Shown piece after piece: positions 34,329 to 54,781 of a DNA stretch of 64,000 nucleotides (within the stretch, counting starts at the first letter, position 1; every line of letters starts with the position of its first letter). The DNA comes from a bacterium (GTDB lineage: Bacteria > UBA8248). The stretch spans positions 160,001-224,000 of the forward strand of contig CBDCRP010000003.1 of NCBI GenBank assembly GCA_965221165.1, written 5' to 3'. Below the pieces are notes generated by a model that made no database searches, was not told the DNA's origin, and worked only from the letters and a program-made list of their open reading frames with translations. The translations under genes and the position numbers were made by a program.

Positions 34329-35816
34329 TCACCGGCCCAACGAATCCCAGAGCTTAGTGTCTTCATTTTCAAGCATCGCTTTAAGGGTAATCCCCTTCTT
34401 CACATTCCCGCCAAGCGTGAATTCCGCCGAAACCTGATGGCCGATAATCCACGCCACTTTCTCCCCCACGGCAAGCAGCGGTATCCGGTTTCTCAAGGAT
34501 TTCGGTATTTTTTGCTCTATGAAGTAATCCTTGAGCTTCTTCTCCTTTTTGCGGTCCACAGGATGGAAGCGATCTCCATCGCGCCGGGTTCGGATGCGGG
34601 CATCAGCACCCAGTTTTTCCGCATCGAGACACACTTCCCACCCCCCTTTCAGGGGATGTGCAAAATCCAGCGAAGTTTCCATTTCAAGGCCTAATGAGCG
34701 ATGAACCGTCTCTCCAGGAATCCGTAGCTTTTGCTCCTCAAGTAATTTCGAATCAAAATCGGGATGCCCGAAGATGAGCCTGTCATATTCCCTTCTCGCC
34801 TCCAAACTACCCGGCAAACTCAAAACTCCCGAAGGATTATCCCCCATCGCGAGGTCATCGAGGTCTTCAATCCACTTCCGAAGAGCGCGCCTGCGGGTGC
34901 GGACGGGCGATTCTTCCCTAAGCGTATCCAGCGCCGTGCGCCAAACCCCGGCTCTGAGCGCTTGAGTGAGTTTCCTCACTTTCCGCAAAGGAAAAATCGT
35001 GATCTTCCCCTCGTCCTCACGAATGAACTTCACACACGCATCCATGGTCATTTCATCAACGAGAGAAACAAGCGGCGCCGAGATTTCCGCGCTCTTGGCG
35101 ATTCCGCTGATGGCGGCATCACCCAAATACTCTCGAACCACCGGCATGATTTTTTTGCGTATCCGGTTTCTGAGGCGGCTTTCATCTTCATTTGTTTCAT
35201 CTTCGACCCAGGAAACGCCCCGCACTTCCAGATATTCCAAAATTTCCGTGCGCGACGCATCCAGCAAGGGCCGGATGATCTGAAGCCCATCTCCTCTTTT
35301 CGACGAAAGCGGGGTCCGCCATTTGATGCCCGATATGCCCTTCACGCCCGCTCCTTCGAATAAACGCATGAGTACGGTCTCGGCCTGATCATCTTTGTTG
35401 TGCGCCAACGCGAGAGTATCGGCCCCCATCTCCCGGGTGACGGATAGGAAGGCCGAGCGTCTTGATTCGCGCGCAGCTCCCTCAAGGCCCCTTTGCGCTA
35501 TTTGAGACACCCGAACACGCTCGCAACGGAAATCGATATCGTATCGTCGACACACACGCTCGGCATGCTCAGCGTCTTTTCTCGAAAGAGCGCCCCGGAG
35601 CCCGTGCTCGACATGAACAGCGCAGAGGAGTTGTGATTCCGGCAAGAGCGACTGTAAGGACAATAAAAGGGCGGTGGAATCCGCGCCACCCGAAAAGCCG
35701 ACGAGCAAAGGGACAGGCTTCGCCTCATAAGCGCATTTTTTGAGGCCTTTTCTCACCTTGGCCTCAAACGTTTTTTTTATCTTCAAGGAAGATGTTTGCG
35801 GGGCGTCCGGAGTCAT
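34329..35816 (-). CDS. tilS: tRNA(Ile)-lysidine synthase
   Basis: SGGADS, HGLRG, AH..DDQAET, RPLL, RNRIR, TilS_C. Confidence 0.95.
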   Translation of the reverse strand: MTPDAPQTSSLKIKKTFEAKVRKGLKKCAYEAKPVPLLVGFSGGADSTALLLSLQSLLPESQLLCAVHVEHGLRGALSRKDAEHAERVCRRYDIDFRCERVRVSQIAQRGLEGAARESRRSAFLSVTREMGADTLALAHNKDDQAETVLMRLFEGAGVKGISGIKWRTPLSSKRGDGLQIIRPLLDASRTEILEYLEVRGVSWVEDETNEDESRLRNRIRKKIMPVVREYLGDAAISGIAKSAEISAPLVSLVDEMTMDACVKFIREDEGKITIFPLRKVRKLTQALRAGVWRTALDTLREESPVRTRRRALRKWIEDLDDLAMGDNPSGVLSLPGSLEARREYDRLIFGHPDFDSKLLEEQKLRIPGETVHRSLGLEMETSLDFAHPLKGGWEVCLDAEKLGADARIRTRRDGDRFHPVDRKKEKKLKDYFIEQKIPKSLRNRIPLLAVGEKVAWIIGHQVSAEFTLGGNVKKGITLKAMLENEDTKLWDSLGR

Positions 35817-35847
35817 TGAGAATATCCTCCCCTAGACGGCGAGGAAG

Positions 35848-35924
35848 TGGTAGCGGCGGAGGGACTTGAACCCCCAACACTACGGATATGAGCCGTATGC
35901 TCTAACCGGTTGAGCTACGCCGCC
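35848..35924 (-). tRNA. tRNA with CAT anticodon, most likely elongator tRNA-Met
   Basis: Reverse complement GGCGGCGTAGCTCAACCGGTTAGAGCATACGGCTCATATCCGTAGTGTTGGGGGTTCAAGTCCCTCCGCCGCTACCA. Confidence 0.93.
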
Positions 35925-35937
35925 AGAATGCACTCCG

Positions 35938-36093
35938 TCAGGGGGACTGCTTGGGTCGGAATATTGCGAAAAAAAACATGACCGAGAGAATATAGAAAAA
36001 AACCTGTAAGCCAACGTCTTCCATACGGAAGCCTACCATCAAGCACAAATATCCCAAAAAGAGCAAGATCATAATTTCGATTTCACGTCTCAT
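35938..36093 (-). CDS. Small two-TM membrane protein (51 aa)
   Basis: ATG 36093 overlaps the stop of the upstream ORF (ATGA); two hydrophobic stretches. Confidence 0.6.
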   Translation of the reverse strand: MRREIEIMILLFLGYLCLMVGFRMEDVGLQVFFYILSVMFFFAIFRPKQSP

Positions 36094-36287
36094 TTGTCGT
36101 TTACTCCCCGCTCTAAACTTTCGGAAGAAGGTGACGGATCGTTCGATTTCTCCCGTTTTAATCTCAAGTCCGGAGAAAATTCCGGACAAAAAATCGCTCC
36201 ATTCGGCTCGTTACGATACTTTAGACGGCAATTCTCTCGCCAAGCGCAAACAGCACATTCACGAACTCCCTCGTAGGCCACGCTCAA
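36090..36287 (-). CDS. Small Cys-rich hypothetical protein
   Basis: CAVCAWRENC...CPEF four-Cys pattern; RBS GAGGAG before TTG. Confidence 0.7.
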   Translation of the reverse strand: MSVAYEGVRECAVCAWRENCRLKYRNEPNGAIFCPEFSPDLRLKREKSNDPSPSSESLERGVNDK

Positions 36288-36464
36288 ATACTCTCCTCTC
36301 GAGACTCCGCCTCACTACAGGAGCAGAATATAAATGCCCAGGGGCGAAAACGTCAAGTTTTCTATTTTTCCGTTTTCCCTTTCCTCGACACCTCCAGTAC
36401 CGATGAGCGCTTCACAGAGAGAATGCACCAGTCACTTTGCAAATGAATCCGAGAACCTCATGAA

Positions 36465-38177
36465 TCATCCGGCGCGTTTGATCTCTTCGGAAATCAGGTT
36501 TTCCAGAAAAGATGCCGCATCGTTTACCGCTACAAACTGCGTCTCCCCGGTTCTTCGCGATTTGATCTCGATTTTATTTTCCTTGAGACCCCTCGGTCCG
36601 ATGACCGCCTTATAGGGAAACCCCATCAGGTCGGCGTCCTTGAATTTCACGCCAGGGCGCTCATCCCTGTCATCCAGCACGACATCCAGCCCTGCGGATT
36701 CGAGCGAGTCATACATGCGAGTGCAAACCTCCATGGTTTCATCATCCAGTTTCACCGGAATGATATCCACGTGATATGGAGCGATGGGAGTCGGCCAGAT
36801 GATGCCGTCTTCATCATGGTTCTGCTCTATGGCCGCCGCCACCGTGCGGCCCACGCCAATGCCATAACAACCCATGACGATGGTGTGGGTCTCGCTATTT
36901 TCATCCTGGTAGGTAGCGCTCAGAGACTCAGAATACTTGCAACCCAGCTTAAAGACATGCCCCACCTCGATACCGCGCCTGATACCAAGCGCCGCCTCAC
37001 ATTTGGGGCAGGCATCTCCTTCGTGTGCAACGGTGAGGTCCGCAAATTTGCTTGCCGTAAAGTCACGACCCTCACGCGCGCCCGTATAGTGATGATCCGT
37101 TTGATTCGCCCCGACGATAAGCCCGCCGCTACTCTCAATGGCGAAATCGGCGATGAGCCTGACGTCCGCCAAACCGACAGGGCCTGCAAAACCCACTTCA
37201 GAGCGGGTAAGTTCCTCCACCATCTCGGGGCCGGCAAGCTCGATATCCACCACATCAAGCGCATTTTTCAATTTGATTTCATTCAACTCTCTGTGGCCTG
37301 GAATCAGCGCGGCCACCGGCTCGCCGTCCGCAACATACAAAAGGGTCTTGACCATCCTGTGCGGAGGTAAAGAGAAAAATTCCGCCACCTCTGCTATCGT
37401 ATGGGCGCCCGGGGTGTGGACTTTCTCGAGATCACCTCCCTCATTCTCAGGCAGCTTCAGACGAACCGGCGATTTTTCCACATTCGCCGCGTAGCCACAT
37501 GAATCGCAGGCGGTGATTGCCTCTTCGCCCGTATCGGCCATGACCATGAACTCGTGCGAAAAACTCCCGCCAATGGCTCCTGAATCCGCCTCCACGGCAC
37601 TGAACTTCAGTCCACAGCGCTGAAATATCCGTGTATAGGCCTGCACCATCTCATCATAGCTCCGCTCAGCGCCCGCCTCGTCACGATCAAAGCTGTAGCC
37701 GTCCTTCATCGTAAACTCCCGCCCCCGCATCACGCCAAACCGCGGCCTGATCTCGTCTCTAAACTTCGTTTGAATCTGATAGAGATTAAGCGGCAGGTCC
37801 CGGTAGCTCCTCACCTCGCGCGCCACCAGATCGGTAACTACCTCTTCATGCGTGGGACCCAGGCAAAAATCGCGCTCATGGCGATCTTTTAAGCGGATCA
37901 ATTCTTTGCCATATACTTCCCATCGTCCCGTTTTTTGCCAGAGTTCGGCGGGATTCAGCGTAGGAAGGAAAACCTCTTGCGCACCTGCGTGATTCAACTC
38001 TTCGCGCAGTATCTGCTCCACTTTGCGCTGCACGCGCACACCCAGTGGCAAAAGCGTATACACGCCCGCCGCCAAGCGACGAATCATTCCCGAACGCACC
38101 ATGAGCTTGTGGCTGACGACTTCCGCCTCGGCGGGCGCTTCTTTTAATGTGGGCAAAAATCCTCGTGAGAATCGCAT
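36465..38177 (-). CDS. proS: Proline--tRNA ligase
   Basis: GPTHEE, KFRDEIRPRFG, INS editing domain, MGCYGIG. Confidence 0.98.
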   Translation of the reverse strand: MRFSRGFLPTLKEAPAEAEVVSHKLMVRSGMIRRLAAGVYTLLPLGVRVQRKVEQILREELNHAGAQEVFLPTLNPAELWQKTGRWEVYGKELIRLKDRHERDFCLGPTHEEVVTDLVAREVRSYRDLPLNLYQIQTKFRDEIRPRFGVMRGREFTMKDGYSFDRDEAGAERSYDEMVQAYTRIFQRCGLKFSAVEADSGAIGGSFSHEFMVMADTGEEAITACDSCGYAANVEKSPVRLKLPENEGGDLEKVHTPGAHTIAEVAEFFSLPPHRMVKTLLYVADGEPVAALIPGHRELNEIKLKNALDVVDIELAGPEMVEELTRSEVGFAGPVGLADVRLIADFAIESSGGLIVGANQTDHHYTGAREGRDFTASKFADLTVAHEGDACPKCEAALGIRRGIEVGHVFKLGCKYSESLSATYQDENSETHTIVMGCYGIGVGRTVAAAIEQNHDEDGIIWPTPIAPYHVDIIPVKLDDETMEVCTRMYDSLESAGLDVVLDDRDERPGVKFKDADLMGFPYKAVIGPRGLKENKIEIKSRRTGETQFVAVNDAASFLENLISEEIKRAG

Positions 38178-38191
38178 GAATCAGAATTTTC

Positions 38192-39442
38192 TTAGGAGTG
38201 GGCCGTCTCGAATTGGCCTTTTTCATATTGTTCCGCGAGTTGTTCTACGCGTTCGACCAAGTTTTTCTTGATGTCTTCGTAAGATACCAGACCAGCCTTT
38301 TCGCCTTTCATGAAAATCAGAGCGCGCTTGTGTCCGCCGGCGACGCCGATGTCGGCATCCTTCGCTTCACCGGGCCCGTTCACTTCGCAACCCATGACGG
38401 CCACCGTAATGGGGGCACTGATATGGGCGAGTTCCTGCTCTACTTCCATGGTGAGCTTATCCACATCAATCTGAACGCGGCCGCATGATGGGCACGCGAC
38501 GACATTCACGCCCTTTTGGCGCAGCTTCATACTTTTCAGAATTTCGTAACCCACACGCACCTCTTCCACCGGATCCGCCGCCAAAGAAACACGGATGGTG
38601 TCGCCAATACCCTCAGAGAGCAGAATTCCTAAACCGACGGCGCTTTTTATACTCCCCGTCTGGAGGCTTCCGCTCTCCGTGATGCCCAGGTGAAGAGGAT
38701 ACTCAACACGTTTCGCCATCAACCGATAGGCTTTTACCGTCCTCGCGACATCAGAAGCTTTCAGGGAAATTTTCGTGTCATAAAAGTTGCGCTTCTCCAG
38801 CATGGCGACATGGCGCAATCCGCTTTCCACTATCGCCTCGGGCGTGGCGCCCCCAAAGCGATCAAGCAGATGTTTTTCCAGGGAACCGGCGTTCACACCC
38901 ACACGGATGGGCAAGCCGTGGTCTTTCGCCGCGGCGACCACCTCGCTCACCCTTTCTTCTCCATTGATGTTGCCGGGGTTGATGCGCAGGCAATCAATCC
39001 CTGCATCCGCCGCCATCAAGGCATAGCGATAGTCGAAATGAATATCCGCCACCAATGGTATTTCGGTGCGTTTTCTGATTTCAGGCAGCGCCTCGGCCGA
39101 CTTCTCATCGGGAACAGCCAGGCGCACGATTTCACATCCAGCGGCTTCCAGGCGTTCGATTTGGTCGATGGTTCCCTCCACATCGTGCGTGTAGGTGTTG
39201 CACATCGACTGCACCACAATGGGAGCGCCGCCGCCAATCTTGACGCCGCGTACTTCGACTTGGGAGCTTTTTCGCCGATTCAAAGGAAACAATGAGGGGT
39301 CTGCGCAAGGCAGCGCCTCGTCGGCTGCACCCCCACCCACCATCGGAAGAGCGGAACCGTGTTGCTCTTCGGGAGGCAGACCGACTCCCGGAATGGGTTT
39401 CTTGTAAAATATATCGTCTGTAAATGGCTCAAACATAATCAA
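38192..39442 (-). CDS. ispG: HMBPP synthase
   Basis: VQSM.NT, ADIHF, RINPGN, CPSCGR, MGC.VNGPGE. Confidence 0.97.
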   Translation of the reverse strand: MIMFEPFTDDIFYKKPIPGVGLPPEEQHGSALPMVGGGAADEALPCADPSLFPLNRRKSSQVEVRGVKIGGGAPIVVQSMCNTYTHDVEGTIDQIERLEAAGCEIVRLAVPDEKSAEALPEIRKRTEIPLVADIHFDYRYALMAADAGIDCLRINPGNINGEERVSEVVAAAKDHGLPIRVGVNAGSLEKHLLDRFGGATPEAIVESGLRHVAMLEKRNFYDTKISLKASDVARTVKAYRLMAKRVEYPLHLGITESGSLQTGSIKSAVGLGILLSEGIGDTIRVSLAADPVEEVRVGYEILKSMKLRQKGVNVVACPSCGRVQIDVDKLTMEVEQELAHISAPITVAVMGCEVNGPGEAKDADIGVAGGHKRALIFMKGEKAGLVSYEDIKKNLVERVEQLAEQYEKGQFETAHS

Positions 39443-39447
39443 AGCCC

Positions 39448-40641
39448 CTACTCATTTTTTTTCTTTTCAGGAGATAATTTCTTTATGTTCTTGCCTTTCC
39501 GCTCTTGTTTCTGTTTCGTGATGGATGGCGTTTCACTCCCAAGAAGATAATACACGCTATCCTTGTAGGTGGCAAAGATCATCAAACCGATGAGCAAGAC
39601 GGTGCCCACTTGCATGGCCATCTCCCGGATTCTCAAACTAATGGGCCTACCTCTCAAACCTTCAATGAGCAAGAAAAGAATGTGCCCTCCATCGAGAACC
39701 GGGATTGGCAACAGGTTCAGAATCGCCAAATTCACGCTGAGCAAAATCGTGAACATGATGAGGTAGCGGAACCCGCGTTGCGCTTGTTCCGCAGCCACTA
39801 CGGAAATACGAATCGGCCCGCCGATATCCGCAGGAATCGTTTTCGTGAGCATCGAATATAGTGTAAAGACCGTTAAGCTGACGATGCGGTAGTTTTGCTC
39901 GAATCCCTTCCCCAAGGACTCAATGAATCCAAAACGCTCGGTATGGGTGCCTTGGCCGATACTGATGCCAATGCGACCGTAACCCAACTCCTGGCCCGTC
40001 GCGCTCTTCGATGTCGGGATAATGGGCGTTTCAAAAGATTTGCGGCCGCGCTCCACTTTCAACACGAGTTTTCTATCAGCATTTTTTCGTACAATTTCGA
40101 CAAGCTCGGACCATTTTTGAATCGGCCTCCCGTCAATAGCCACGATATGATCGCCGGTTTGCAGGTTCGCCTTTTGCGCCGGCGTGCCAGGCAAAACACC
40201 GCCCACCCACGTTCCCGGCACGGGAATGCCACCCAGGTGCAGTCCCCAACTCAGGAGTATCGCCAGGACGATATTAAAGAAAGGCCCTGCCGAAATGACC
40301 GCCAATCTATGGCTCACGGGGCGCAGATAAAAAGATTTTTCCGGTTCATCCGGCTCTTTGGGCACATCGGGATCATCAGGTTGCGCTTCGGGGTCTTCGC
40401 CTACGAGCTTCACATAGCCACCCAAAGGGATGAGCGACACGCGATACTCCGTCTCTCCGCGCTCAAAACCCCAGATGCGACGGCCAAAACCTAAAGAAAA
40501 CGTAGTGACGCCGATTTTGAGCCATTTGGCCACGAGATGGTGACCCAATTCGTGGATGAAAATGAGTAAACCCAAGACAAGCACGGCCCAGAAAATCGTC
40601 TGTCCGAAACCCATCACCCAGTTTATGATTTGCATCGTCAT
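39448..40641 (-). CDS. rseP: RIP metalloprotease RseP
   Basis: HELGH, PDZ domain, NLLPIPVLDGG. Confidence 0.95.
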   Translation of the reverse strand: MTMQIINWVMGFGQTIFWAVLVLGLLIFIHELGHHLVAKWLKIGVTTFSLGFGRRIWGFERGETEYRVSLIPLGGYVKLVGEDPEAQPDDPDVPKEPDEPEKSFYLRPVSHRLAVISAGPFFNIVLAILLSWGLHLGGIPVPGTWVGGVLPGTPAQKANLQTGDHIVAIDGRPIQKWSELVEIVRKNADRKLVLKVERGRKSFETPIIPTSKSATGQELGYGRIGISIGQGTHTERFGFIESLGKGFEQNYRIVSLTVFTLYSMLTKTIPADIGGPIRISVVAAEQAQRGFRYLIMFTILLSVNLAILNLLPIPVLDGGHILFLLIEGLRGRPISLRIREMAMQVGTVLLIGLMIFATYKDSVYYLLGSETPSITKQKQERKGKNIKKLSPEKKKNE

Positions 40642-40659
40642 TCTCGAATGAATCCTTAT

Positions 40660-41403
40660 TTATTGCCGGTCGCTGTGGGCCGGCATTTGGATAACTTCCA
40701 CATTCGGCGGCACGACAAACTCAAATTCCTCTTCTGCAATTCTGACGTCTTCTCGCACATCTGAAAAACGCAAATGACTCTTGTTGCCGACGTTATCAAT
40801 ATACGCCAACGTGAGGATTGTGAAATTCTCAGGCTCCACTTCTATCCACATTCGGCGAAAAGAGGGCCCTGGAGACTTGGGCTCCAAGCGAATGCGGTGG
40901 GGCTGACCAGCCCGCCAGATTCCTCCGCTTCGTCTCGCAATTCCAACTTCTTCCACCAAAACATGAAAATTCTCCTTCAGATCCCCCTTGCCTGCCAAGA
41001 ATAACAAAGGAGTGGCACTAAACCCAAGGCGCCCGGTTTTGGAAACCATCACTTGTTTGAAGCGGGCCGTGTAGATCCAAAACGTACGACCATCAGAAAC
41101 CAGAACCTGATTTTCGGGCTTCAGATACTCCATGCGCAATTTGCCCGGTTTCTTCAACAGGAGGCTCCCGCTCGACGTCGTTGTTCGCCCAAGGGATTTC
41201 AATTCATTTTTTTGCTCGAAAGAGGCTTGCAGGGATTCCAGGGCCTCATATTTTTTCTGGAGAGCCGTGATTATTCTCCCCGTCTTCAGACGTGATTCTT
41301 CCTCCACCGGCGCACAAAAAACGGTGGCTTCAAAAAACGCGAAAAACGAAAACCCGAATACCAGCATCAAAAAAATCGATTTGCTCAAAACTCTGGTTAT
41401 CAT
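40660..41403 (-). CDS. lolA: Outer-membrane lipoprotein carrier LolA
   Basis: ASFEQ, KPGKLR.EY..P..Q..VSDG, F.F..P motifs. Confidence 0.88.
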   Translation of the reverse strand: MITRVLSKSIFLMLVFGFSFFAFFEATVFCAPVEEESRLKTGRIITALQKKYEALESLQASFEQKNELKSLGRTTTSSGSLLLKKPGKLRMEYLKPENQVLVSDGRTFWIYTARFKQVMVSKTGRLGFSATPLLFLAGKGDLKENFHVLVEEVGIARRSGGIWRAGQPHRIRLEPKSPGPSFRRMWIEVEPENFTILTLAYIDNVGNKSHLRFSDVREDVRIAEEEFEFVVPPNVEVIQMPAHSDRQ

Positions 41404-41412
41404 TATGAATTA

Positions 41413-42066
41413 CTACTCCGAAACGGGCGAGATGAAACCGCTATTACCCCCAAAAACGTCTCCTGCATATTCCACAACGCCACCAATGCAGCGAACGCTC
41501 CCCTCGGCAATGAGACGCACCGCAAGCGGGTATATGCGGTGTTCATAACCGAGAATTCTCTCCGAAAGTTTTTTTTCATCATCATGGGGAAACACCGGCA
41601 CGGCGGCTTGTAAAATGACTGGCCCTGTATCCACCCCCTCGTCCACAAAGTGGACCGTGCAGCCCGTCACCCTCACGCCGGCATCCAAGGCCTTTTTTTG
41701 CGCGTGAAGACCAGGAAAACTCGGCAAAAGCGAAGGATGAATGTTGATGATTCTTCCCGAGAAACGGCTCACGAACTTTGGGGGTAAAATGCGCATGAAA
41801 CCAGCGCAACAGATGAGCTCGATTCCACAACTTTCGAGCTCATCACCCATCTTCAGATAAAAACCATCCTCTTCGGGCGCTACGTGCCGATGTTCTATTC
41901 CCGCCGCCGAAGCGCGCTCGAGCGCATACGCCTTTTTTTTGTCGCTCAACACCAGTGCGACTTCCGCCGGGAAATCCGGATTCCCTCCCGCATCAATGAG
42001 GGCTTGTAAGTTCGAGCCACGTCCCGACGCCAAAACACCCACGCGCAATCGTGTTCTTCGAGACAA
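41413..42066 (-). CDS. purN: Phosphoribosylglycinamide formyltransferase
   Basis: SGRGSNL, NIHPSLLP.F.G, GCTVHFVD...D.GP; start reassigned to TTG 42066. Confidence 0.96.
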   Translation of the reverse strand: MSRRTRLRVGVLASGRGSNLQALIDAGGNPDFPAEVALVLSDKKKAYALERASAAGIEHRHVAPEEDGFYLKMGDELESCGIELICCAGFMRILPPKFVSRFSGRIINIHPSLLPSFPGLHAQKKALDAGVRVTGCTVHFVDEGVDTGPVILQAAVPVFPHDDEKKLSERILGYEHRIYPLAVRLIAEGSVRCIGGVVEYAGDVFGGNSGFISPVSE

Positions 42067-42068
42067 TG

Positions 42069-43121
42069 TTATACGCCCTCGATGACGACGGAGTGGCCAC
42101 CTTTCGGTCCCTTGGTGACCTCGCCGACAACCATGGCTTCTTCGCCCGTATTTTTCAAACATTCAAGCAAAGATTCGGCCCGCTCCTCTCTCACGAGAAA
42201 GACAAGGCCCAAACCCATATTGAAAGTGCGATACATCTCCGCGCTCTCAACCGGGCCAATCTCTTGAATCAATGGAAAAATTTTCGGCACAGGCCATTTC
42301 CCGGGATACAATTTGGCTTGCAAATCATCCGGAACCAGACGGCTCACATTTCCTGGAAGACCGCCTCCCGTGATGTGCGCGATTCCGCTTAGCCCCTCTT
42401 CCCCTCTGGCGGAGCGCACCGCTTTGGCGTAAATCCGGGTCGGCTCCAATAAAACATCTTCAATGGGAGCGCCCAGCCTTCGCGCCGCTGCATCTCGTTT
42501 TTCTTTTGATTCAAATATCTTCCGCACGAGGGAATAGCCGTTGCTATGGATTCCCGAGGAAGGCAGCGCGAGAATAATATCGCCTGCTTCCACAGGTGTT
42601 CTATCGTTCAATCGCTTTCGTTCAACCACACCCACTGCGAATCCCGCGAGGTCATATGCGCCCGAGCCGTACATGTCGGGCATCTCGGCCGTCTCGCCCC
42701 CGAGGAGGGCGCACCCAGCCTCCCGACAACCCCGGGCAATGCCGGATACGACATCCGTCAGTACGTTTTGGTCAATCTTGCCCGTTGCAATGTAGTCCAG
42801 GAAAAAAAGAGGTTCCGCTCCCGTGGTCAAGATGTCGTTGACGCACATGGCCACCAAGTCAACACCAACGGAACCATGACGCCGGAACTCCTGGGCCAGG
42901 AGCAATTTCGTGCCGACGCCGTCGGCGCCTGAAACGAGTACAGGGTCTTTATAATCCCCGCCGAGGCGGAACAAACCCGCAAAATCCCCCGTCCCTTTCA
43001 GGATACGGCCACTTTGACTCTCATGGGTGGATCTTACGGCTTGGGCAATGGAGCGAACGAAACTCTCGCCCAAATCCACATCGACGCCCGCTCCGCTATA
43101 TGTCAAACGATGGTCACTCAA
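42069..43121 (-). CDS. purM: AIR synthase
   Basis: Y..AGVD, DGVGTK, GGETAEMP, HSNGYSL, HITGGG, TFNMG. Confidence 0.97.
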   Translation of the reverse strand: MSDHRLTYSGAGVDVDLGESFVRSIAQAVRSTHESQSGRILKGTGDFAGLFRLGGDYKDPVLVSGADGVGTKLLLAQEFRRHGSVGVDLVAMCVNDILTTGAEPLFFLDYIATGKIDQNVLTDVVSGIARGCREAGCALLGGETAEMPDMYGSGAYDLAGFAVGVVERKRLNDRTPVEAGDIILALPSSGIHSNGYSLVRKIFESKEKRDAAARRLGAPIEDVLLEPTRIYAKAVRSARGEEGLSGIAHITGGGLPGNVSRLVPDDLQAKLYPGKWPVPKIFPLIQEIGPVESAEMYRTFNMGLGLVFLVREERAESLLECLKNTGEEAMVVGEVTKGPKGGHSVVIEGV

Positions 43122-43172: not shown

Positions 43173-45305
43173 TCAGGCATGGACTTCCATCAATTTTTTG
43201 ACCAAGGCGACATTATGCCGGTGACCGCTTCTCTCGGCGGTCACTTTTCCTCGAACAGGACGACCGGTTAGATACAGGTCCCCTATCACGTCAAGAATTT
43301 TATGGCGAACGAACTCGTTGGGAAACCGCAATTGGGTATTCACGATACGCGCCTTGTCCACAAGAATGACGTTGTCCCAACGACCGCCCTCGGCCAGGCC
43401 CATTTCCTCGAGCGACTCCAATTCAGAGACAAAGCCAAACGTACGGGCCGGCGCGATTTCTTCCTGAAAACTCAACGCATTTTTATGTTCATACAAGTAG
43501 GATTGCTTCCCGATCGGCCGGGGATAATCGATGAGGTATGAAACCGAAAAAGAATCCGACGGCTCAATGCGAATATAACCCCTTTCATCGCCTGGCTCAC
43601 CTACTTCATAAATTTTATCTACCCATAATTCCTCGCGTTTTTCCTTTTGATCCTCGATTCCCGCTTCTTCAAGCAAGCGACAAAATTCCACCGCCGAACC
43701 ATCCATGACGGGTACTTCCTCACTTATTTTAACGAGGGCATTACTTATCTTATATGCGTGCAAAGCGCTCATGAGATGTTCTATCGTTCGGGCTGTCACT
43801 GCCCCATTGCGCAAGTTCGTCGCATGATTGGTACTATCCACGAAATCGACATTCGCCCTCACGGTCTCGGAACTCGTCAAGCTGCCGAAATGAATCCCGC
43901 TCCCCGGCGGCAAGGGCTCAATTATCATTCCGGTTTTCAGGCCGGAATGAAGCCCCCGTCCATACAACACGACACTCTTCGAGATACTCCGTTGATTTGA
44001 TTCCTTGAGGGTCGCCGGCGCCGGTGATACGGGCTCTATCTTGTATGTTTGAATTTTTCGGTTTAAGGCGGATTCCGTCATACCCACGGCTTGAGCCGTC
44101 TTGCCAATATCCCAACCATGTTCCTCCAAATGGAAAGAAAGATACTGTCTCTCCCATTGGGTTCTGGCCGCATTAAAATTCGAAGGTGCGTCGTTTCCGG
44201 ATGCGTCCGCCTCGAAGGCAGAAACTTCGCGTATCGCATATGGCAAGTGACCGATGCGAATCTCCGCTCCAGGCGACGTATCGGCGGCTTTGGTTACCAC
44301 GCCTTTTAGTTCAGCGATATTGCCTGGCCAGTCGTATTCCTCCAGAAGCGCAATGACATCTTCTGAGAATTCCTTTTTGTTCCTGCTGGCTTCAATGTAT
44401 TCATTCAAAAATTTGTTCGCCAGCGGCGAAATATCTTCTTTGCGTTCGCGCAAAGGTGGCAGGTGTAATACATCGGCATCTATTTTTCCGGACAGAGATC
44501 GCACGTAGGCCTTGTCTTTCGGAGTTCCCATATGATCAACGGATACCATCAATCGTGTCGAATCCTTTGTATGCTTCAGGAATAGAGCAAGAAATTCCTC
44601 GCGCTCCACGATGGGCAACTGCTCCAGGCCATCAAGGTATACCGTCCCCAGAAAAGCAGGGGGGACCAACCGCTCCAGCGTCTCTTCCCATTCGTTTTTT
44701 CGCAGCATCGGGAACAAGGGGCGACAATGAACCGGCCTGAAGCCTCCTTCTTTTCTGGTACCGTTCTCGTGAATCACCCTTGCAATGAAACGCTTGCCGG
44801 TTCCCCTTTCACCTGCAATCATCAAGGGACCAAGATTTTTCGCCGTTCTCCTGATGGCTCGTTGAACCTTTTGAATGCTTTTACTCGCGCCATCAAGCAT
44901 CACATCAACGACATCATTCCCCTGTAGTTCCTTGGCCCTTCGCGCTTGAACAGCAGAGCCGACTATGCGCAAAACCGTGTCAATGGAGAGGGGTTTTTCA
45001 ATAAAATTGAAAGCGCCCAGCTTTGTTGCGGCGACGGCGGTTTCAATATTGCCATGGCCCGACATCAGGACGACTTCGATATCCGCGTTGGACTCTTTCA
45101 CCGCTTGCAAGGTTTTGATTCCATCAATTCCCGGCATCCATACATCGACCAAGACCACATCCGGGGTTTCGGTTCGAACCAACTGAAGCGCAGTTTCTCC
45201 GGACTCGGCTCGCTCCACACGATACCCCTCATCGTGCAAAACATCTTCCAGGCTCGTGAGTATTTCGCGCTCATCATCGACGATGAGGACATGTCCCTTA
45301 TCCAA
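43173..45305 (-). CDS. lpxC: Fusion: NtrX-type receiver + degenerate sigma54 AAA+ + Fis-like HTH + LpxC (UDP-3-O-acyl-GlcNAc deacetylase)
   Basis: Single 710-aa ORF. REC (DDE, D54 in DVWMP, KP), GERGTGK, PPLRER.EDI, WPGN, HTH; from ~aa 438 LpxC motifs QRSI...GLHSG, TIEHLMSAL, P.MDGSA, ARTFGF, HKILD.IGDL, SGH. Confidence 0.93.
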   Translation of the reverse strand: MDKGHVLIVDDEREILTSLEDVLHDEGYRVERAESGETALQLVRTETPDVVLVDVWMPGIDGIKTLQAVKESNADIEVVLMSGHGNIETAVAATKLGAFNFIEKPLSIDTVLRIVGSAVQARRAKELQGNDVVDVMLDGASKSIQKVQRAIRRTAKNLGPLMIAGERGTGKRFIARVIHENGTRKEGGFRPVHCRPLFPMLRKNEWEETLERLVPPAFLGTVYLDGLEQLPIVEREEFLALFLKHTKDSTRLMVSVDHMGTPKDKAYVRSLSGKIDADVLHLPPLRERKEDISPLANKFLNEYIEASRNKKEFSEDVIALLEEYDWPGNIAELKGVVTKAADTSPGAEIRIGHLPYAIREVSAFEADASGNDAPSNFNAARTQWERQYLSFHLEEHGWDIGKTAQAVGMTESALNRKIQTYKIEPVSPAPATLKESNQRSISKSVVLYGRGLHSGLKTGMIIEPLPPGSGIHFGSLTSSETVRANVDFVDSTNHATNLRNGAVTARTIEHLMSALHAYKISNALVKISEEVPVMDGSAVEFCRLLEEAGIEDQKEKREELWVDKIYEVGEPGDERGYIRIEPSDSFSVSYLIDYPRPIGKQSYLYEHKNALSFQEEIAPARTFGFVSELESLEEMGLAEGGRWDNVILVDKARIVNTQLRFPNEFVRHKILDVIGDLYLTGRPVRGKVTAERSGHRHNVALVKKLMEVHA

Positions 45306-47562
45306 TGGAGGCCGTCCTTTGCTTTCCAGGCGTAATGTCCGCAGTACCTGCCAGTGGCAACGTTACGCGAAAAACAGAACCCGCCGGGTGGTTGTCTCGC
45401 ACGCCTATCGTTCCATTATGGTCTGCCACAATGCGATGACATATAGCCAAACCCAAACCGGAGCCCCTGTTTTTCGTGGAAAAGTAAGGCGAGAATATAT
45501 GGCCTTTCATATCTTCCGATATACCCTGCCCTTGGTCGGCAACTTCAACAAGTATCATGTTTCTGTCCTTATCGCTCCATGCTTGTAAATCTATCTCACC
45601 TTCAACCTCTTGGGATTCGAAAGCGTTTTCCAGCAAATTGATGAATACGCGCTGCAACTGCTCGGGATCCGCCATTACAGCCGCATTCTCCGCATCGATG
45701 TGAATGGAAAATTTCATATTCCCCTTCCTGCCGCGATATAAATTCACAACATCCTCAATGAGAGCAACAAAACCGCAAAGCCTTAAGCGGGGTTCCGGCA
45801 TTCGCGCGAAGCTACTGAATTCATTTACCATTTCAATCAGACTCGTCACTTGATTGATGATGGTATCCGTGCAAGATTCAAATACATCTGCAAAATCATA
45901 TGCGTCACTTTCGAATTTCCTTCTCATCCTCTGTGCGGAGAGTTGAATAGGTGTCAGCGGATTTTTGATCTCATGCGCGATGCCCCGGGCCACTTCCTGC
46001 CATGCGGCCACTTTTTGAGCCCGTATCAGAGCCGTCATATCGTCAAATACGATGACAGCGCCGAGCCTGCCGCCATCCCCGCTTCTCAGTAGAGTCAAAC
46101 TGGCTCGTAGCGTCAGTACGCGGCCATCAATCATTACCTCCACCTGCTCCGAAGCGCTTTGATTCTCTCGGCCTCTCATAGAGCGCATCAACTGGCGAAT
46201 GGGCTCGAGCTGCGCACTGTCAAAAACCTCGCTGAACATTCGCCCAATGGCGTTCTGTGGTTCAGCGTTCAACAGTTCTCCAGCCGCTTTGTTGAGGATG
46301 GTGACGCGTCCCCGGCGGTTGATGGATATCACGCCGGCGCCGATATTTTCGAGCATCGCTTCCATATATCTGCGTCTTCTGTCAATTTCCAAGTTGGTGC
46401 GGCGCAGAGTCTCGGAGGACTCTTCGATTTTCTCCTTGTTGGCCGACAATTCTTCCGTCATGCTGTTGAATGCGCTAACCAATATCCCGACCTCGCCATC
46501 CGCTTGCGCGTCCACGCGATGTTCGAGATCGCCATCCGATACCGCTCTGGTGGCTTCCGCCAATTTTTCGATGGGAACCGTGATCCCGCGAGCCAGGTAG
46601 AGGCCAAACCATATGGCGGCGAACAGGATGAGCAGCGTAACCACCAGAAAAGTGATGATATAGTTGGCTTTGATGGGATTTTTCGAGAGTTCCAGTTCTT
46701 TATAACTCACAAAGGAATCCGATATGCCTCTTATCTTCTCAACGAGCCGATAAGACACATTTTTGGATACGACGATGAACCCCACTATTTTTTTTCCAAC
46801 CTTCAAGGGCGCTACACCATGTATGACATCGCCTTTTTCCCAATTCTCCACGCTTGAGCGCGATTCCCCGTCAATCACCTGATCTATGTATCCCACCAAA
46901 GGCGAGAACTTCACGGCCTCCGCCAAACCCGGACGCTTGACCGATACGATCTCCTTTCGATCCTTATCGTAGAGTAGGATGAAATCTACGCCCAAACTCT
47001 TTCGCTCCGCCTCCAATGTTTTTTCAATCGTTTTGGGGTTTTCCGAAATACCGGGGTACTTCTTTTCCAGCATAAGCGCCAGTCGGCTTGCACTGAACAG
47101 CGCGTTTCTCTCCACCTCGCGATAATAGGTCTGGGCTACTTCGAACGATCCCTTGAGCGCGCGCTCCACATTCATGTTGAACAAGGCGTTAAAACTTTGG
47201 TTAATCAAGCCGCTGGCCACCACAAAAAGAGCCACAACCGGGATCAGCGTAAATCCGACAAAAGCCAATATGAGTTTTAATTGCAAGCGTGAACGACCGA
47301 TGCCCGCTCTTCCCTCGTAATAAAGGCGCGCCAGGTTCTTCGCCACCAGGAGGATAACCACCATGAGGAGAATGATGCTCAGGTTCACGAGCGCAAATAC
47401 AACCACATTGTTCAGCAGAGGGACTCCCGGCTCGAGTTCCTTGAAGTAAATCCAAGCCGTAAACGAAAGAGTCGCAATGGCGATCAAAGCGATAAAAGAG
47501 CGCAGGAGTGTCTTTCGTCGGCGTGCAGAAATTTCTTCCTGGTTCAGGTGCTTTGGATACAC
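45298..47562 (-). CDS. NtrY-type sensor histidine kinase (TM, periplasmic, HAMP, PAS, HisKA, HATPase)
   Basis: AWQEVARGIAHEIKNPLTPIQLSAQR H-box, N/G1/F/G2 boxes; overlaps the regulator start. Confidence 0.92.
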   Translation of the reverse strand: MYPKHLNQEEISARRRKTLLRSFIALIAIATLSFTAWIYFKELEPGVPLLNNVVVFALVNLSIILLMVVILLVAKNLARLYYEGRAGIGRSRLQLKLILAFVGFTLIPVVALFVVASGLINQSFNALFNMNVERALKGSFEVAQTYYREVERNALFSASRLALMLEKKYPGISENPKTIEKTLEAERKSLGVDFILLYDKDRKEIVSVKRPGLAEAVKFSPLVGYIDQVIDGESRSSVENWEKGDVIHGVAPLKVGKKIVGFIVVSKNVSYRLVEKIRGISDSFVSYKELELSKNPIKANYIITFLVVTLLILFAAIWFGLYLARGITVPIEKLAEATRAVSDGDLEHRVDAQADGEVGILVSAFNSMTEELSANKEKIEESSETLRRTNLEIDRRRRYMEAMLENIGAGVISINRRGRVTILNKAAGELLNAEPQNAIGRMFSEVFDSAQLEPIRQLMRSMRGRENQSASEQVEVMIDGRVLTLRASLTLLRSGDGGRLGAVIVFDDMTALIRAQKVAAWQEVARGIAHEIKNPLTPIQLSAQRMRRKFESDAYDFADVFESCTDTIINQVTSLIEMVNEFSSFARMPEPRLRLCGFVALIEDVVNLYRGRKGNMKFSIHIDAENAAVMADPEQLQRVFINLLENAFESQEVEGEIDLQAWSDKDRNMILVEVADQGQGISEDMKGHIFSPYFSTKNRGSGLGLAICHRIVADHNGTIGVRDNHPAGSVFRVTLPLAGTADITPGKQRTASIG

Positions 47563-47565
47563 GAC

Positions 47566-48171
47566 TCACATTCCTTTAGAACCAAATGTGTCCGAATGGC
47601 TCCAATCAGAGTTTTCCCCCCAAAAAGCGAGTAAGTAATTGAAGGGAAAAACAAAATCCACATGATTCAACCGCGCTCTGATTTTGACATAATATTCACT
47701 GTTTTGGGACAACGCTTTGCCGGAAACAATGGGCGCGCCGTTCAATTCGCGCATCCAGTCCATCATCTCACCTTCGCTCTTGGTCACTTTTCTCTCAATG
47801 TCTTTCGCATCTTCTTTGATAAGAAAAGTGTAGGTTTTTTTCAGCGCGCTATATTTCACCTGGTGATGAAATTGCCGTGAGGAGACTTCCAAGTCATAGA
47901 TCAGCTTGCGGGAACGGAGGAGACTTACATCAAAGATGAACTTGGTCGTCACACCACTATGGATGGCTTCCAACAGTTTTGGCGAAAACGCACCCAATAG
48001 TGAACCAAAAACAAGCAACTCTCCATTCTTCTCAACAACGATGACATCTTTTATTCGAATTTCATCCGGGTCGTCCGTTGCGGAGAGCGCCGGACCCGCC
48101 AGAACGAAGAACCCGCAGATGGCTATGATTAACTTCCTCAGAACAAATGTTTTCTTGGCGTCAGATAACAT
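47566..48171 (-). CDS. DUF4390-like periplasmic protein
   Basis: Signal peptide, EAI.SGV...F motif, typical position upstream of NtrY-like kinases. Confidence 0.75.
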   Translation of the reverse strand: MLSDAKKTFVLRKLIIAICGFFVLAGPALSATDDPDEIRIKDVIVVEKNGELLVFGSLLGAFSPKLLEAIHSGVTTKFIFDVSLLRSRKLIYDLEVSSRQFHHQVKYSALKKTYTFLIKEDAKDIERKVTKSEGEMMDWMRELNGAPIVSGKALSQNSEYYVKIRARLNHVDFVFPFNYLLAFWGENSDWSHSDTFGSKGM

Positions 48172-48305
48172 AAGTTCCCCTCATCCTTTAAGCTCAATGC
48201 TACCGGATAAGATAAAAGCCCTCAATCCCTCTTTTGCTTCCCTGTCCTCTCGCTTTTATTCACCAAACGCAACCAGATGCACGCCGGGGTCTCCAGGCGT
48301 CTTTC

Positions 48306-51918: not shown

Positions 51919-52398
51919 TCAACGATTCCCCGGCTTTTGCCGCGACAACCATCCCCCCTCAAGCAGAGAGGCTATCCTGTTTTCTTCCTTTCTCATCCGG
52001 ACGGATTCCGCCTTCGTGTAATGATCATATCCCTTTAGATGTAAAAGGCCGTGGACAAGCAGACGATCCGCCAAGACTCCGCAATCAACCGACTCCTCCT
52101 GCGCCTGGCGAAATACCTCATCGACGGAGATGACCACCTCACCCCGAAATGTCTTCCTCTCTTCTTTCTCTCCCGTCAATGCAAAAGAATCCGCCGGCGG
52201 AAAAGCCAGGACATCCGTTGTTTCGTCTTCGCCTCGATACCGGGAATTCAACGCTCGCATCCCCTCGTCTCGAATGAATGCGATGCTGAACCAGTCATCT
52301 TCGGATCGGAGAGCCTTCCGTATGACCTCCAAGCGCCGCCTCAGCGCCTTGTGATCCAGAGCGAACAGTTCTTGCTCGTTTTTGATCAGAACTTCCAT
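51919..52398 (-). CDS. ybeY: rRNA maturation endoribonuclease YbeY
   Basis: LN..YR, TDVLAF, HGLLHL.GYDH; start reassigned to ATG 52398. Confidence 0.93.
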   Translation of the reverse strand: MEVLIKNEQELFALDHKALRRRLEVIRKALRSEDDWFSIAFIRDEGMRALNSRYRGEDETTDVLAFPPADSFALTGEKEERKTFRGEVVISVDEVFRQAQEESVDCGVLADRLLVHGLLHLKGYDHYTKAESVRMRKEENRIASLLEGGWLSRQKPGNR

Positions 52399-54781
52399 TC
52401 GCAGCGCCTTTCCTAGGAGCGTCTTCTTGTCCTGGATAATGAATCCGGTGATGATGAATACCAACCAGAACGCGCATGAAAGCATCCTGAATGTTGCTCA
52501 AATCCCTGAGCGTGAGGCTGCAATTATCCAGTTGCCCCTCCACAAAAGCACTCTGGACGATTCTATCCACCAAAGCGCTCAGACGTCCAAGGGAATGGTC
52601 CGAAAGCGAGTGCGTGGATGCCTCCACCATATCGGCCAACATCAGGATGCCTGCCTCTCTCGTCTGCGGCCTCGGCCCCGGATAGCGAAAAATCTCTTCT
52701 CTCACGTCATCCCCGTCCAGGCTCTTCGCTTTCTCGTAAAAAAATCGAATCAGGGATGTGCCATGATGTTGCTGGATTAAATCGATAATCTCTTTTGGCA
52801 GTTTGTGGCTTCTGGCGAGTTCAATACCTTCTTTCACATGGCTGACCAGGACGAGCGCGCTCATGTTGGGTTTGAGTCTGTCGTGGCGGTTTTTCGGCCC
52901 CTGGTTTTCGATAAAATACTCCGGCTTCATCATCTTGCCGATATCATGGAAATACGCACCCACGCGGGTGAGGAGCGGATTTGCCCCGATCGCCTCGGAC
53001 GCCTCCTCCGCCAGGTTCCCCACGAGGAGGCTATGGTGGTAAGTGCCCGGCGCGTTGACGACCATCTTCCTCAACAACGGATGGTTCTGGTCGGCCAGTT
53101 CCAGGAGCCGCATATCGGTCGTGAGCTTGAAAACCGACTCGAGCAGGGGCATGGCCCCCGCCACAATGATGACGTTCGAGAGACCGCCGAGCAAGGCGAT
53201 GGGAACATCGGTCCACTTCATAACCGCGGCGCCGAAACCCTCCTGCATGTTGAAACCCAGCGCGAGCGCGGCACCCAGCAGACCCAGCATGAGCGCTACT
53301 ATGAGCACGGAAGTCCTGCGCCGATATTCTTTCCAGCGAATGGCTGCGAGCACGCCGCCGGCCAGGGCGACGAGGCTGAAGTTCATGTGATTCGGCAAAA
53401 TCAATCCGGTGAGAACGGCGGAGAAAATCGCCATCAATACCGCAGATGATCGCCCCTGCAAAACGGCTGTGAGAAGAGAGGCGGAACAAAAAGGAATGAC
53501 ATAGTAAAACGAATGCAACGGGATTCCCCGGAAAGTTTCATGCAGCACCTGGGAGAAGAGAATCCCCATTTTCAGTAAAACGGCTTGGCTCAAGAGCAGT
53601 ATCATAAAAAGGGTTACGTTTTTGGGCGACGACAAAAAAGTCACGTCATACTTCTGCACGCAGACCCACGCCAAGACGAGCAGAATGAACACCACAAACG
53701 CCGTTCCCACGAAGTTGTCGAGCACGTGGCTTTGGCGGTAGATTTTCTCCAAACTTTTGAGTTTAGTGATTTGTCCTTCGTTCACCCGTTCACCCTCGCG
53801 AACGATCATCTCCCCTTGCTTGAGAATCTCGGAGACGGGCGGGACAGAGGCCGCGACTTTCTCTCTACTCTCGAGCGTCGCCCTGTTGTTGAACGTCAGC
53901 GTGGGTTGAACCATCTTCCGGACCTGGGAGATCAGCAAATCACCAATGCGCCGAGGTACTCTGCGGGATATCTTCCGGGTTTCTTGCTTGAGTAATTTAT
54001 CGACCTGTCTGAGCTCCAGGGGATTCATGGATCGGCTGACGGAGACGCGATTCCCCGTTCTAATGTCACGCGCCGTAATCCCCTTGGCCGCATGGGTGGC
54101 GTATAAGCGCTTATCACTCACGATTTGGCGCGAAAATGCCGCCTTCAACAACTTGGCGATATCCCCCCGAATCCAGTTCGCGAATCTCTCACTTCTCAGC
54201 CAGGCCGCCAGTTCCTTTGGAAGCGCGCCACCCACCAGCTTATGAAACGCGCTCTCCGCCTTGATGAAGGCAGGGGTAGCGTACATTTCCCGATAAACTT
54301 CCGACTCCGAAAAAAGCGTCCGGCTCTTTTGCTTGGCCCGTTTATTGAACTGCTCGGCTTTCACCTTCTCGAGTTCTTTGTCTATCGTCCGTTGAATGGA
54401 TTCAAATGCGCCATTCAACCTGTTGATGACAACTTGCGAGAGTTGGGTGTCGATATCGTAACGCGGCAAGACTTTTTCTCTCGCTGCCTGGCGTTTCGCG
54501 TTCGTGGCAATGGGGTCGACCACGCGCATGTCCTCAGGGGCTTTGATATCCCTGGGAACGACATCGCCCACCTCAAAAGACACGCGAGGGGCCGAAATAT
54601 CCGTTGTGAGCAGAAATGAAAGCACGGCGGCGAGCGTTCCGCCCAGAATCCACGGATAGGCCCTTGTGTTGGTAAACGCCAAGGCAGAATCCGCAATCCA
54701 TCGCCCCATCGACACACATAGACGCAAAAGGATGTTTTTGGGTTTTCCGGCCGTTTTCCCGGCGCCGGCTCGATGAATCAC
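52295..54781 (-). CDS. 7TM-HD / HDIG phosphohydrolase (PgpH-like)
   Basis: Large extracellular domain, multi-TM region, APGTYHHS, HDIGK, HHGT, FRYPGP.P, LAD. Confidence 0.92.
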   Translation of the reverse strand: MIHRAGAGKTAGKPKNILLRLCVSMGRWIADSALAFTNTRAYPWILGGTLAAVLSFLLTTDISAPRVSFEVGDVVPRDIKAPEDMRVVDPIATNAKRQAAREKVLPRYDIDTQLSQVVINRLNGAFESIQRTIDKELEKVKAEQFNKRAKQKSRTLFSESEVYREMYATPAFIKAESAFHKLVGGALPKELAAWLRSERFANWIRGDIAKLLKAAFSRQIVSDKRLYATHAAKGITARDIRTGNRVSVSRSMNPLELRQVDKLLKQETRKISRRVPRRIGDLLISQVRKMVQPTLTFNNRATLESREKVAASVPPVSEILKQGEMIVREGERVNEGQITKLKSLEKIYRQSHVLDNFVGTAFVVFILLVLAWVCVQKYDVTFLSSPKNVTLFMILLLSQAVLLKMGILFSQVLHETFRGIPLHSFYYVIPFCSASLLTAVLQGRSSAVLMAIFSAVLTGLILPNHMNFSLVALAGGVLAAIRWKEYRRRTSVLIVALMLGLLGAALALGFNMQEGFGAAVMKWTDVPIALLGGLSNVIIVAGAMPLLESVFKLTTDMRLLELADQNHPLLRKMVVNAPGTYHHSLLVGNLAEEASEAIGANPLLTRVGAYFHDIGKMMKPEYFIENQGPKNRHDRLKPNMSALVLVSHVKEGIELARSHKLPKEIIDLIQQHHGTSLIRFFYEKAKSLDGDDVREEIFRYPGPRPQTREAGILMLADMVEASTHSLSDHSLGRLSALVDRIVQSAFVEGQLDNCSLTLRDLSNIQDAFMRVLVGIHHHRIHYPGQEDAPRKGAANGSSDQKRARTVRSGSQGAEAALGGHTEGSPIRR

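Follow-up and report, generated by a model that had tools for sequence, protein, structure and literature searches.

A conserved fusion of an NtrX-like response regulator to LpxC, a candidate for phosphorylation-dependent control of lipid A synthesis

[quoted passage not shown] Here we describe a locus in which this enzyme forms one end of a signaling protein. Within a 64,000-nucleotide (nt) stretch of a genome from the bacterial lineage UBA8248 (hereafter the window; contig CBDCRP010000003.1 of assembly GCA_965221165.1, positions 160,001 to 224,000), a single gene joins an NtrX-like response regulator to a complete LpxC and lies directly behind the gene for an NtrY-like histidine kinase. The fusion is conserved, the phospho-acceptor of its receiver domain (REC) and the catalytic residues of its LpxC are intact, the part between them has decayed and has been lost repeatedly, and unfused lpxC stands in the same gene cluster in other bacteria. 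The reading we consider rather probable from these comparisons is that phosphorylation of receiver residue D54 controls the attached LpxC after translation.

Two described kinds of system connect similar kinases and regulators with lpxC at the level of transcription. NtrYX lowers lpxC transcription in Rhodobacter sphaeroides and Caulobacter crescentus according to a 2025 review of lipid A regulation (PMC12444477), and in an R. sphaeroides mutant lpxC transcripts are up 8.8-fold with no NtrX site at lpxC (PMC7240162), an effect reported as indirect. Our locus shares with NtrY/NtrX of these two species and of Brucella abortus (structures 5m7n, 5m7o and 5m7p) the kinase domains, the series of REC, AAA+ module lacking GAFTGA and Fis-type helix-turn-helix (HTH), and the link to the envelope and lpxC. 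It differs in having LpxC covalently attached, in its score against the NtrX model (251 vs 600) and in a more decayed AAA+ module, with Walker B reduced to D-G, no arginine-finger motif and a core about 22 amino acids (aa) shorter. In Desulfovibrio vulgaris, lpxC is the only mapped target of DVU2934, and in Syntrophobacter fumaroxidans the orthologous regulator operon has lpxC directly upstream (PMC3333781). The DVU2931/DVU2934 pair is thus comparable as a two-component system dedicated to lpxC, and the S. fumaroxidans gene order recurs in 10 loci considered below, one of them from Syntrophobacteraceae; its control, however, is transcriptional and exerted by an NtrC-type regulator. A search with the unfused regulator of one such locus (L048) returned 80 generic NtrC-family loci, with no D. 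vulgaris or S. fumaroxidans among them. In Bordetella, genetic evidence adds a third, periplasmic component, the DUF4390 protein PlrP, which holds back the phosphatase activity of PlrS, the NtrY-like kinase (PMC13001219). The PlrS/PlrR system resembles ours in having the DUF4390 gene immediately 5' of the kinase gene, whereas the window has mutS rather than rsmB upstream and a regulator that carries LpxC. The available text of that 2026 paper, whose survey covered proteobacteria only, mentions neither LpxC, nor lipid A, nor a fusion.

The LpxC-FabZ protein of Chlorobium (NF009667) is a known fusion (PMC516016) and likewise places LpxC inside a larger protein with a functionally linked partner, although there the partner is a competing fatty-acid-pathway enzyme at the C-terminal side and here it is a signaling module at the N-terminal side. 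FtsH/LapB(YciM) control in enterobacteria is aimed at the same committed step; the degron-bearing C-terminal tail of E. coli LpxC is, however, missing from the fused enzyme. FtsH is encoded in the window (32313-34328), and the LapB zinc ribbon found no match in the genome, using a weak 28-position model that also matches Gram-positive controls. With the tail missing and no LapB match, E. coli-type control of LpxC looks absent. Response regulators with enzymatic outputs are well known: CheB, PleD/WspR and RpfG each comprise an N-terminal receiver, a linker and a C-terminal enzyme. The shortest form of the fusion, REC-LpxC, has exactly that layout, but the enzyme at its output end would be a biosynthetic zinc amidase rather than a chemotaxis or second-messenger enzyme. 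We found no description of a receiver-LpxC fusion in a literature search that covered openly available articles without their supplementary files. The available text of the 2025 review (PMC12444477) contains no occurrence of "fused" or "fusion" and treats LpxC regulation beyond enterobacteria as largely open.

The fused gene is the last of three genes packed head to tail on the minus strand:

47566..48171, minus strand, gene for a DUF4390 protein of 201 aa (Pfam DUF4390, PF14334, at aa 36-191, 92 bits)
45298..47562, minus strand, gene for an NtrY-like sensor histidine kinase of 754 aa (Pfam NtrY_N, HAMP, PAS, HisKA and HATPase_c)
43173..45305, minus strand, fused response regulator-LpxC gene, 710 aa, TTG start (open reading frame calling, Pfam, NCBIfam and read contigs)

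A gap of 3 nt separates the DUF4390 stop from the kinase gene, and the fused gene, with its TTG start, shares 8 nt with the end of the kinase gene. Near its N-terminus the DUF4390 protein carries a single hydrophobic segment (aa 14-32, by hydropathy), and it is likely exported as a PlrP-like partner of the kinase. The kinase, which scores 29 bits for NtrY_N (Pfam cut-off 23), has four predicted membrane segments with about 180 aa separating the third and fourth, and its H box (H535, HisKA), N, G1 and G2 boxes are all intact. A preliminary description of the window, made from the letters alone, had named this an NtrY/NtrX-like system with its regulator fused to LpxC, overlapping the end of the kinase gene and preceded by a DUF4390-like gene, and that anatomy proved right.

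The 710-aa frame of the fused gene (43173-45305, minus strand) is free of stops and divides into five parts:

44967..45290, minus strand, receiver (Response_reg, PF00072), aa 6-113, Pfam 103 bits
44211..44891, minus strand, degenerate AAA+ module and lid, aa 139-365, by partial Pfam matches and motif loss
44043..44159, minus strand, Fis-type HTH_8, aa 383-421, borderline at 22.9 bits against a Pfam cut-off of 22
43995..44042, minus strand, HTH-to-LpxC linker, aa 422-437, variable in sequence and constant in length
43188..43994, minus strand, LpxC domain (PF03331), aa 438-706, Pfam 281 bits against a cut-off of 27, model positions 1-267 of 268

The phospho-acceptor D54 (codon 45144-45146) lies within VDVWMPG and is accompanied by the rest of the phospho-acceptor set, D10, D11, S82 and K104. 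The enzyme part scores 233 bits against the lpxC model TIGR00325 (NCBIfam cut-off 187), aligns to Pseudomonas aeruginosa LpxC (E 1e-47) including its zinc and catalytic residues, and contains E509-H510, T622-F623, H668-K669-x-x-D672, D676 and G694-H695. We take E509, H510, T622, H668, K669, D672, D676 and H695 to correspond to E. coli E78, H79, T191, H238, K239, D242, D246 and H265. There is no C-terminal tail, as the protein stops at aa 710, six residues beyond the point that pairs with residue 274 in the alignment to E. coli LpxC (305 aa). No internal start for a free LpxC was evident in the linker, which is without an in-frame ATG, and the only in-frame GTG/TTG, at codons 446-447, are inside the first LpxC strand. 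On the regulator side, the best solved-structure match of residues 5-420 is Brucella NtrX (5m7n, E 2e-47), to whose HTH the HTH_8 aligns, and the layout is that of NtrX, in which REC is followed by an AAA+ module that lacks GAFTGA and by a Fis-type HTH, the gene coming behind that of an NtrY-type kinase. The top regulator model is likewise NtrX (NF051870, NCBIfam), at 251 bits and under its cut-off of 600, and we therefore call the regulator NtrX-like rather than NtrX. Every element of the earlier domain assignment was recovered, namely the single uninterrupted frame, the receiver with D54 in DVWMP and its DD, S and K, the Fis-like HTH, and the complete LpxC from aa 438 (nt 43994) with its EH, HKxxD and GH motifs, and Pfam matched Response_reg, Sigma54_activat, HTH_8 and LpxC alike. 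Only its "sigma54-AAA+-like" label needs narrowing: the AAA+ homology holds, but the module cannot be a sigma-54 activator.

An artefact, whether a lost stop, a frameshift or a chimeric assembly joining two genes, can be practically discounted as the origin of this frame. A short-read contig of run X1, which may be the sample from which the window was assembled, spans 43173-45287 with 0 differences, and a contig of a second study (X3) spans 43173-45261 with 132 substitutions and 0 gaps, so the junction has the read support that the preliminary description had called for. A stop and restart between HTH and LpxC, which it had named as grounds for refutation, was sought in reads and relatives, and the uninterrupted frame recurs: it is intact in 43 of 43 complete cases from the phylum, and 116 of the 120 top-scoring database homologues are listed with PF00072 as well as PF03331, shorter pieces making up the remaining 4. 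The one item found in favor of an artefact is a relative, G015 (= L031), with its LpxC part in two frames. In that locus the fused gene is split into overlapping frames of 662 and 293 aa; since the assembly measures 8.0 Mb, about twice the size of its relatives, the split may be a frameshift error or a mixed bin.

The fused LpxC is the only one its bearer encodes. The genome (3.69 Mb in 3 contigs, 96% complete, with the window on the largest contig) has exactly one match to PF03331, as had been proposed for checking, and LpxB and LpxK are encoded elsewhere in it; because this is the only LpxC of a genome that has LpxB and LpxK, the fused enzyme would be expected to be an active deacetylase. 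We extended the count to a census of the phylum, taking 49 genomes with a completeness of 80% or higher, among them the genome that contains the window. One LpxC was found in 48 of the 49 and no match in the remaining one, and no census genome has an LpxC frame of stand-alone size. All 43 complete LpxC matches sit in frames of 432-755 aa, of which 34 belong to a long class (646-755 aa; the domains of 10 were checked) and 9 to a short class (432-538 aa), all 9 consisting of REC and LpxC with a kinase gene upstream; in five further genomes the LpxC is a fragment at a contig end or its frame is split.

Beyond the phylum census, the best 150 of 1.84 billion cluster representatives included 15 REC-AAA-LpxC proteins, 30 REC-LpxC proteins (21 with complete LpxC) and 5 AAA-LpxC pieces without a receiver, the other 100 being unfused LpxC or unfused regulators, and the protein-atlas cluster of homologue P0020 has 381 members, all with LpxC and Sigma54_activat. 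Related loci occur in genomes labeled Nitrospinota, Nitrospinaceae and Tectomicrobia, a second deep lineage of long forms (40-44% identity) carries the NCBI labels Nitrospina or Nitrospinales, and short forms occur also in genomes labeled Thermodesulfobacteriota, Syntrophobacterales, Thermodesulfovibrionia and Binatia. The databases name the fused proteins simply LpxC or NtrX, and the names of 20 clusters of these proteins pointed to uncultured genomes only. Four architectures are found among these relatives, and REC and LpxC are the only constant parts:

REC-AAA-HTH-LpxC, the form of the window
REC-AAA-LpxC, in L295 and L297 (Nitrospina sp. 32_T5), with about 10 residues from lid to LpxC
REC-HTH-LpxC, in P0184 (HTH_8 25.7 bits) and P0185
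REC-LpxC, the short forms

The kinase gene ends at most 150 nt from the fused gene in 26 of the 29 long-form loci with room upstream, and 2 of the 3 misses do have a kinase on separate inspection of the loci. One long form of the second deep lineage, the 757-aa frame of L093 (G036:C5), departs from nearly all others in that the 5.4 kb upstream of it contain neither a kinase gene nor a DUF4390 gene. Among the short forms, 12 Thermodesulfobacteriota-type loci (L096, L098, L101, L104, L108, L112, L120, L124, L125, L140, L151 and L160) are orphans: genes for an NtrY-like kinase and for DUF4390 are both missing from the 0.7-4 kb upstream, and any kinase serving them would lie elsewhere.

The part of the protein that differs among these architectures is also the part that has degenerated. 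In the window, Pfam Sigma54_activat (PF00158) matches only aa 139-196 (model positions 3-60 of 168, 37 bits), Sigma54_activ_2 covers aa 139-285 and AAA_lid_14 aa 286-365; Walker A is retained as GERGTGK, Walker B reads D-G, and neither GAFTGA nor the RxDLYYRL arginine-finger motif is present. The same holds across the fused family, where Walker A is retained, a GAFTGA-like motif was found in none of 186 long forms and the arginine-finger motif in none of 186, while Walker B is D-E in 5, D-G in 73 (window included), D-D in 36 and D-S in 18. Nitrospinota forms are without two segments, of 11 and 12 residues, found in other fused forms, and their core is about 22 aa shorter. In contrast, the 10 unfused regulators encoded beside lpxC have Walker B as FLDEI in all 10, GAFTGA or GSFTGA in 6 and the arginine finger in 8. 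Lacking GAFTGA, the Walker B glutamate and the arginine-finger motif, the fused AAA+ module cannot be a sigma-54 activator, and its motifs mark it as a decayed, presumably non-hydrolyzing remnant; two canonical sigma-54 activators are encoded elsewhere in the genome.

We asked how often the middle part has been lost by building trees of the concatenated REC and LpxC parts, with FastTree (152 rows) and with IQ-TREE (51 rows). The FastTree phylogeny places the fused proteins on one side of a branch and 7 unfused pairs on the other, and the short forms require 4 changes on it; on the IQ-TREE phylogeny they again require 4, of which at least 3 are forced by well-supported branches. An approximately unbiased (AU) test rejected a single clade of the 12 short forms (difference in log likelihood 150.7, p-AU 1e-5). 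In the short form of the window's own genus (G008) a remnant of the final HTH helix survives, whereas between short-form clades the spacers are unrelated. From the AU rejection, the forced changes, the remnant and the unrelated spacers we conclude that the middle part has been deleted several times, at least three, and that REC and LpxC stayed joined each time. A FastTree of the regulator part, unrooted, grouped 34 fused rows and 2 cut fused forms with support 99. A basic linker serving as a membrane anchor was also considered for the spacers and rejected, as their net charge is positive in just 31 of 48, with a median of +1.

The two constant parts are tightly conserved. Of 235 fused proteins without duplicates, 233 have Asp at position 54 (49 of 50 short, 184 of 185 long) and 234 have Lys at position 104 (50 of 50 short, 184 of 185 long), while seven zinc and catalytic residues of LpxC are invariant in all 235 and T622 is kept in 234. 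The ratio of nonsynonymous to synonymous substitution rates (dN/dS, by Nei-Gojobori) is 0.069 for REC and 0.074 for LpxC among 26 long forms (172 pairs), against 0.125 for the HTH, 0.173 for the lid and 0.255 for the AAA+ core, and among 17 short forms (23 pairs) it is 0.047 for REC and 0.065 for LpxC. By this measure the receiver appears as strongly constrained as the essential enzyme, whether a DNA-binding part is present or not, and the middle part in the window's genus appears relaxed, not neutral. The AAA+ module and HTH of this genus probably still do something, such as dimerization, nucleotide binding or autoregulation, yet would be dispensable for the core function.

A link of the system to lpxC without fusion is seen in 10 Thermodesulfobacteriota-type loci where unfused lpxC, a DUF4390 gene (undetected in one), an NtrY-like kinase gene and a regulator gene follow one another on one strand, with 74-143 nt from the lpxC stop to the next open frame. 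In the fused order lpxC stands at the opposite end of the operon, and therefore losing a stop codon would not have been enough and the genes had to be rearranged; the fused order could have come about by a tandem duplication whose outer copies were later lost. Upstream of unfused lpxC, a search for a sigma-54 promoter in 6 of the 10 loci gave no strict and one relaxed -24/-12 match. Ahead of the window's operon is a promoter-like block:

48197..48225, minus strand, promoter-like block, TTGAGG (48225-48220), 17 nt and TAGCAT (48202-48197), about 25 nt ahead of the DUF4390 start codon

In an upstream alignment of the window and 19 related loci this block and the ribosome-binding region are kept, and the remainder of the 134-nt spacer after mutS (48172-48305) varies. 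Their conservation suggests that the three-gene operon probably has its own promoter. The block scores 8/12, under the threshold of the consensus scan, and a consensus scan of the locus for promoters and terminators gave 3 and 9 sites, no excess over shuffles.

The preliminary description had suggested that a periplasm-sensing kinase may set LPS synthesis directly by phosphorylating the enzyme, a suggestion that now has strong comparative support and keeps its conditional form: REC and LpxC are the constant parts, the phospho-acceptor is kept where the DNA-binding part is gone, and the fused LpxC is the sole one. In the mechanism we propose, an envelope condition would be sensed by the kinase's periplasmic domain together with the exported DUF4390 protein, the kinase would phosphorylate D54, and the phosphorylated receiver would alter the catalytic activity, assembly state or stability of the attached LpxC, with CheB-like occlusion of the active site, receiver-driven dimerization and exposure of a degradation signal as candidate routes. 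What we infer in this scheme is that phosphotransfer takes place, that it acts on LpxC, and what kind of signal starts it. A wider evolutionary account, to which we give about even chances, is that LpxC here has become a response-regulator output domain, that a direct switch replaced an older NtrC/NtrX-type transcriptional control of lpxC, and that the ATPase and DNA-binding parts are decaying and were discarded several times independently.

Several observations weigh against control of LpxC through D54. Purifying selection still acts on the AAA+ core, the lid and the HTH in this genus, and the length of the HTH-LpxC linker is tightly kept. On these grounds the long form probably also serves another function, which may be the binding of DNA, and co-expression could by itself account for its being fused. 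A comparison of 216 fused with 158 unfused receivers found no position specific to the fusion (conserved to 85% or more in the former and to 25% or less in the latter), and hence no hint of a specialized contact surface between REC and LpxC. In LpxC, 19 positions reach 90% conservation or more among 160 fused domains and 20% or less among 13 unfused ones, falling within residues 444-461, 516-526, 542-546, 595-601 and 678 of P0001, six of them in the first two strands by the junction, yet these may be just clade markers. The short-form spacers range from 19 to 109 aa with no shared character, which argues against a fixed geometry; in the long form, geometry is suggested to matter by the linker, where the distance from the RK of the HTH to Q438 is 17-22 residues in 174 of 185 long forms at a top-residue frequency of 0.26. 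LpxC is monomeric in its solved structures and is not known to have an allosteric site. An adjacent kinase is lacking in 12 of the 31 short-form loci with room upstream. Finally, tree rows and dN/dS pairs are related sequences and not independent samples, such that the figures drawn from them describe and do not test.

The main rival is two independent functions, in which the NtrX-like part would be only a transcription factor and LpxC only an enzyme, the fusion fixing their co-expression and stoichiometry, and phosphorylation altering DNA binding rather than the enzyme. Co-expression with a still-active transcription factor fits the long form: purifying selection on AAA+, lid and HTH, the conserved linker length, the absence of fusion-specific receiver residues, the conserved promoter-like block upstream of the operon, the action of alphaproteobacterial NtrYX on lpxC transcript levels (PMC12444477) and the prior presence of unfused lpxC in the same gene cluster are all in line with it. 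It does not fit the forms without the HTH, as it cannot explain REC-LpxC (50 unique proteins; 9 of the 43 phylum genomes) or REC-AAA-LpxC, nor why short-form receivers keep D54 and K104 at a dN/dS of 0.047 with no DNA-binding output; the window's HTH, moreover, reaches just 22.9 bits, and the recognition helix is variable within the fused family. We regard this explanation as unlikely, if the strongest of the rivals.

Both remaining alternatives seem to us distinctly improbable. LpxC could be the input instead of the output, a trigger enzyme whose active-site occupancy modulates the regulator and reports lipid A precursor flux to transcription; the HTH adjoining LpxC through a short linker of constant length and the invariant catalytic residues, which imply retained ligand binding, are what such a device would show, but forms without the HTH have no transcriptional output, and catalysis is required of a sole LpxC in any case. 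Of comparably low probability is docking, where the receiver, without need of phosphorylation, would hold LpxC at the membrane-bound kinase or in a complex, bringing the enzyme's work close to the inner membrane, and the kinase would be an anchor, not a switch. The adjacency of the kinase gene in most loci agrees with docking, as does the membrane-localizing LpxC partner proposed for Neisseria, Ght/LapB (PMC12444477), whereas the strict retention of D10, D11, D54, S/T82 and K104 would be unneeded and 12 of the 31 short-form loci are without an adjacent kinase. Phosphorylation-dependent control of LpxC by its own receiver remains the reading we prefer.

The surroundings of the operon include other genes of the envelope. 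Downstream on the same strand (32313-43121, minus) follow purM, purN, LolA, an RseP-type site-2 protease, ispG, proS, tilS and ftsH, of which LolA, RseP and FtsH are envelope-related. Upstream of tilS (34329-35816), at a distance of 32 nt, is a tRNA with anticodon CAT (35848-35924, minus strand) that ARAGORN assigns to Met but that could be tRNA-Ile2, the TilS substrate. Further off (52295-54781, minus strand), an 828-aa seven-transmembrane (7TM) receptor with an extracellular 7TMR-HDED and an intracellular HD hydrolase domain is encoded alongside PhoH, YbeY and a HIT protein in what resembles an operon.

The fusion combines known kinds of component, response regulators with enzymatic outputs and NtrYX envelope systems; what is added here is the phylum census, the series of four architectures, the test for repeated loss, the domain-wise constraint, and the contrast between decayed motifs in fused regulators and intact motifs in unfused ones next to lpxC. 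As a "Rosetta stone", the fusion connects lipid A synthesis with NtrYX-type systems and with the DUF4390 protein that accompanies them, a link that helps to interpret the envelope phenotypes of proteobacterial ntrYX and plrSR mutants, and the architecture series supplies natural constructs for biochemistry, such as REC-LpxC of about 440 aa. If the proposed control is correct, a phylum of marine nitrite oxidizers and several other lineages would control LpxC through a receiver on the enzyme itself, which would constitute a new class of two-component output and a new mode of LpxC control.

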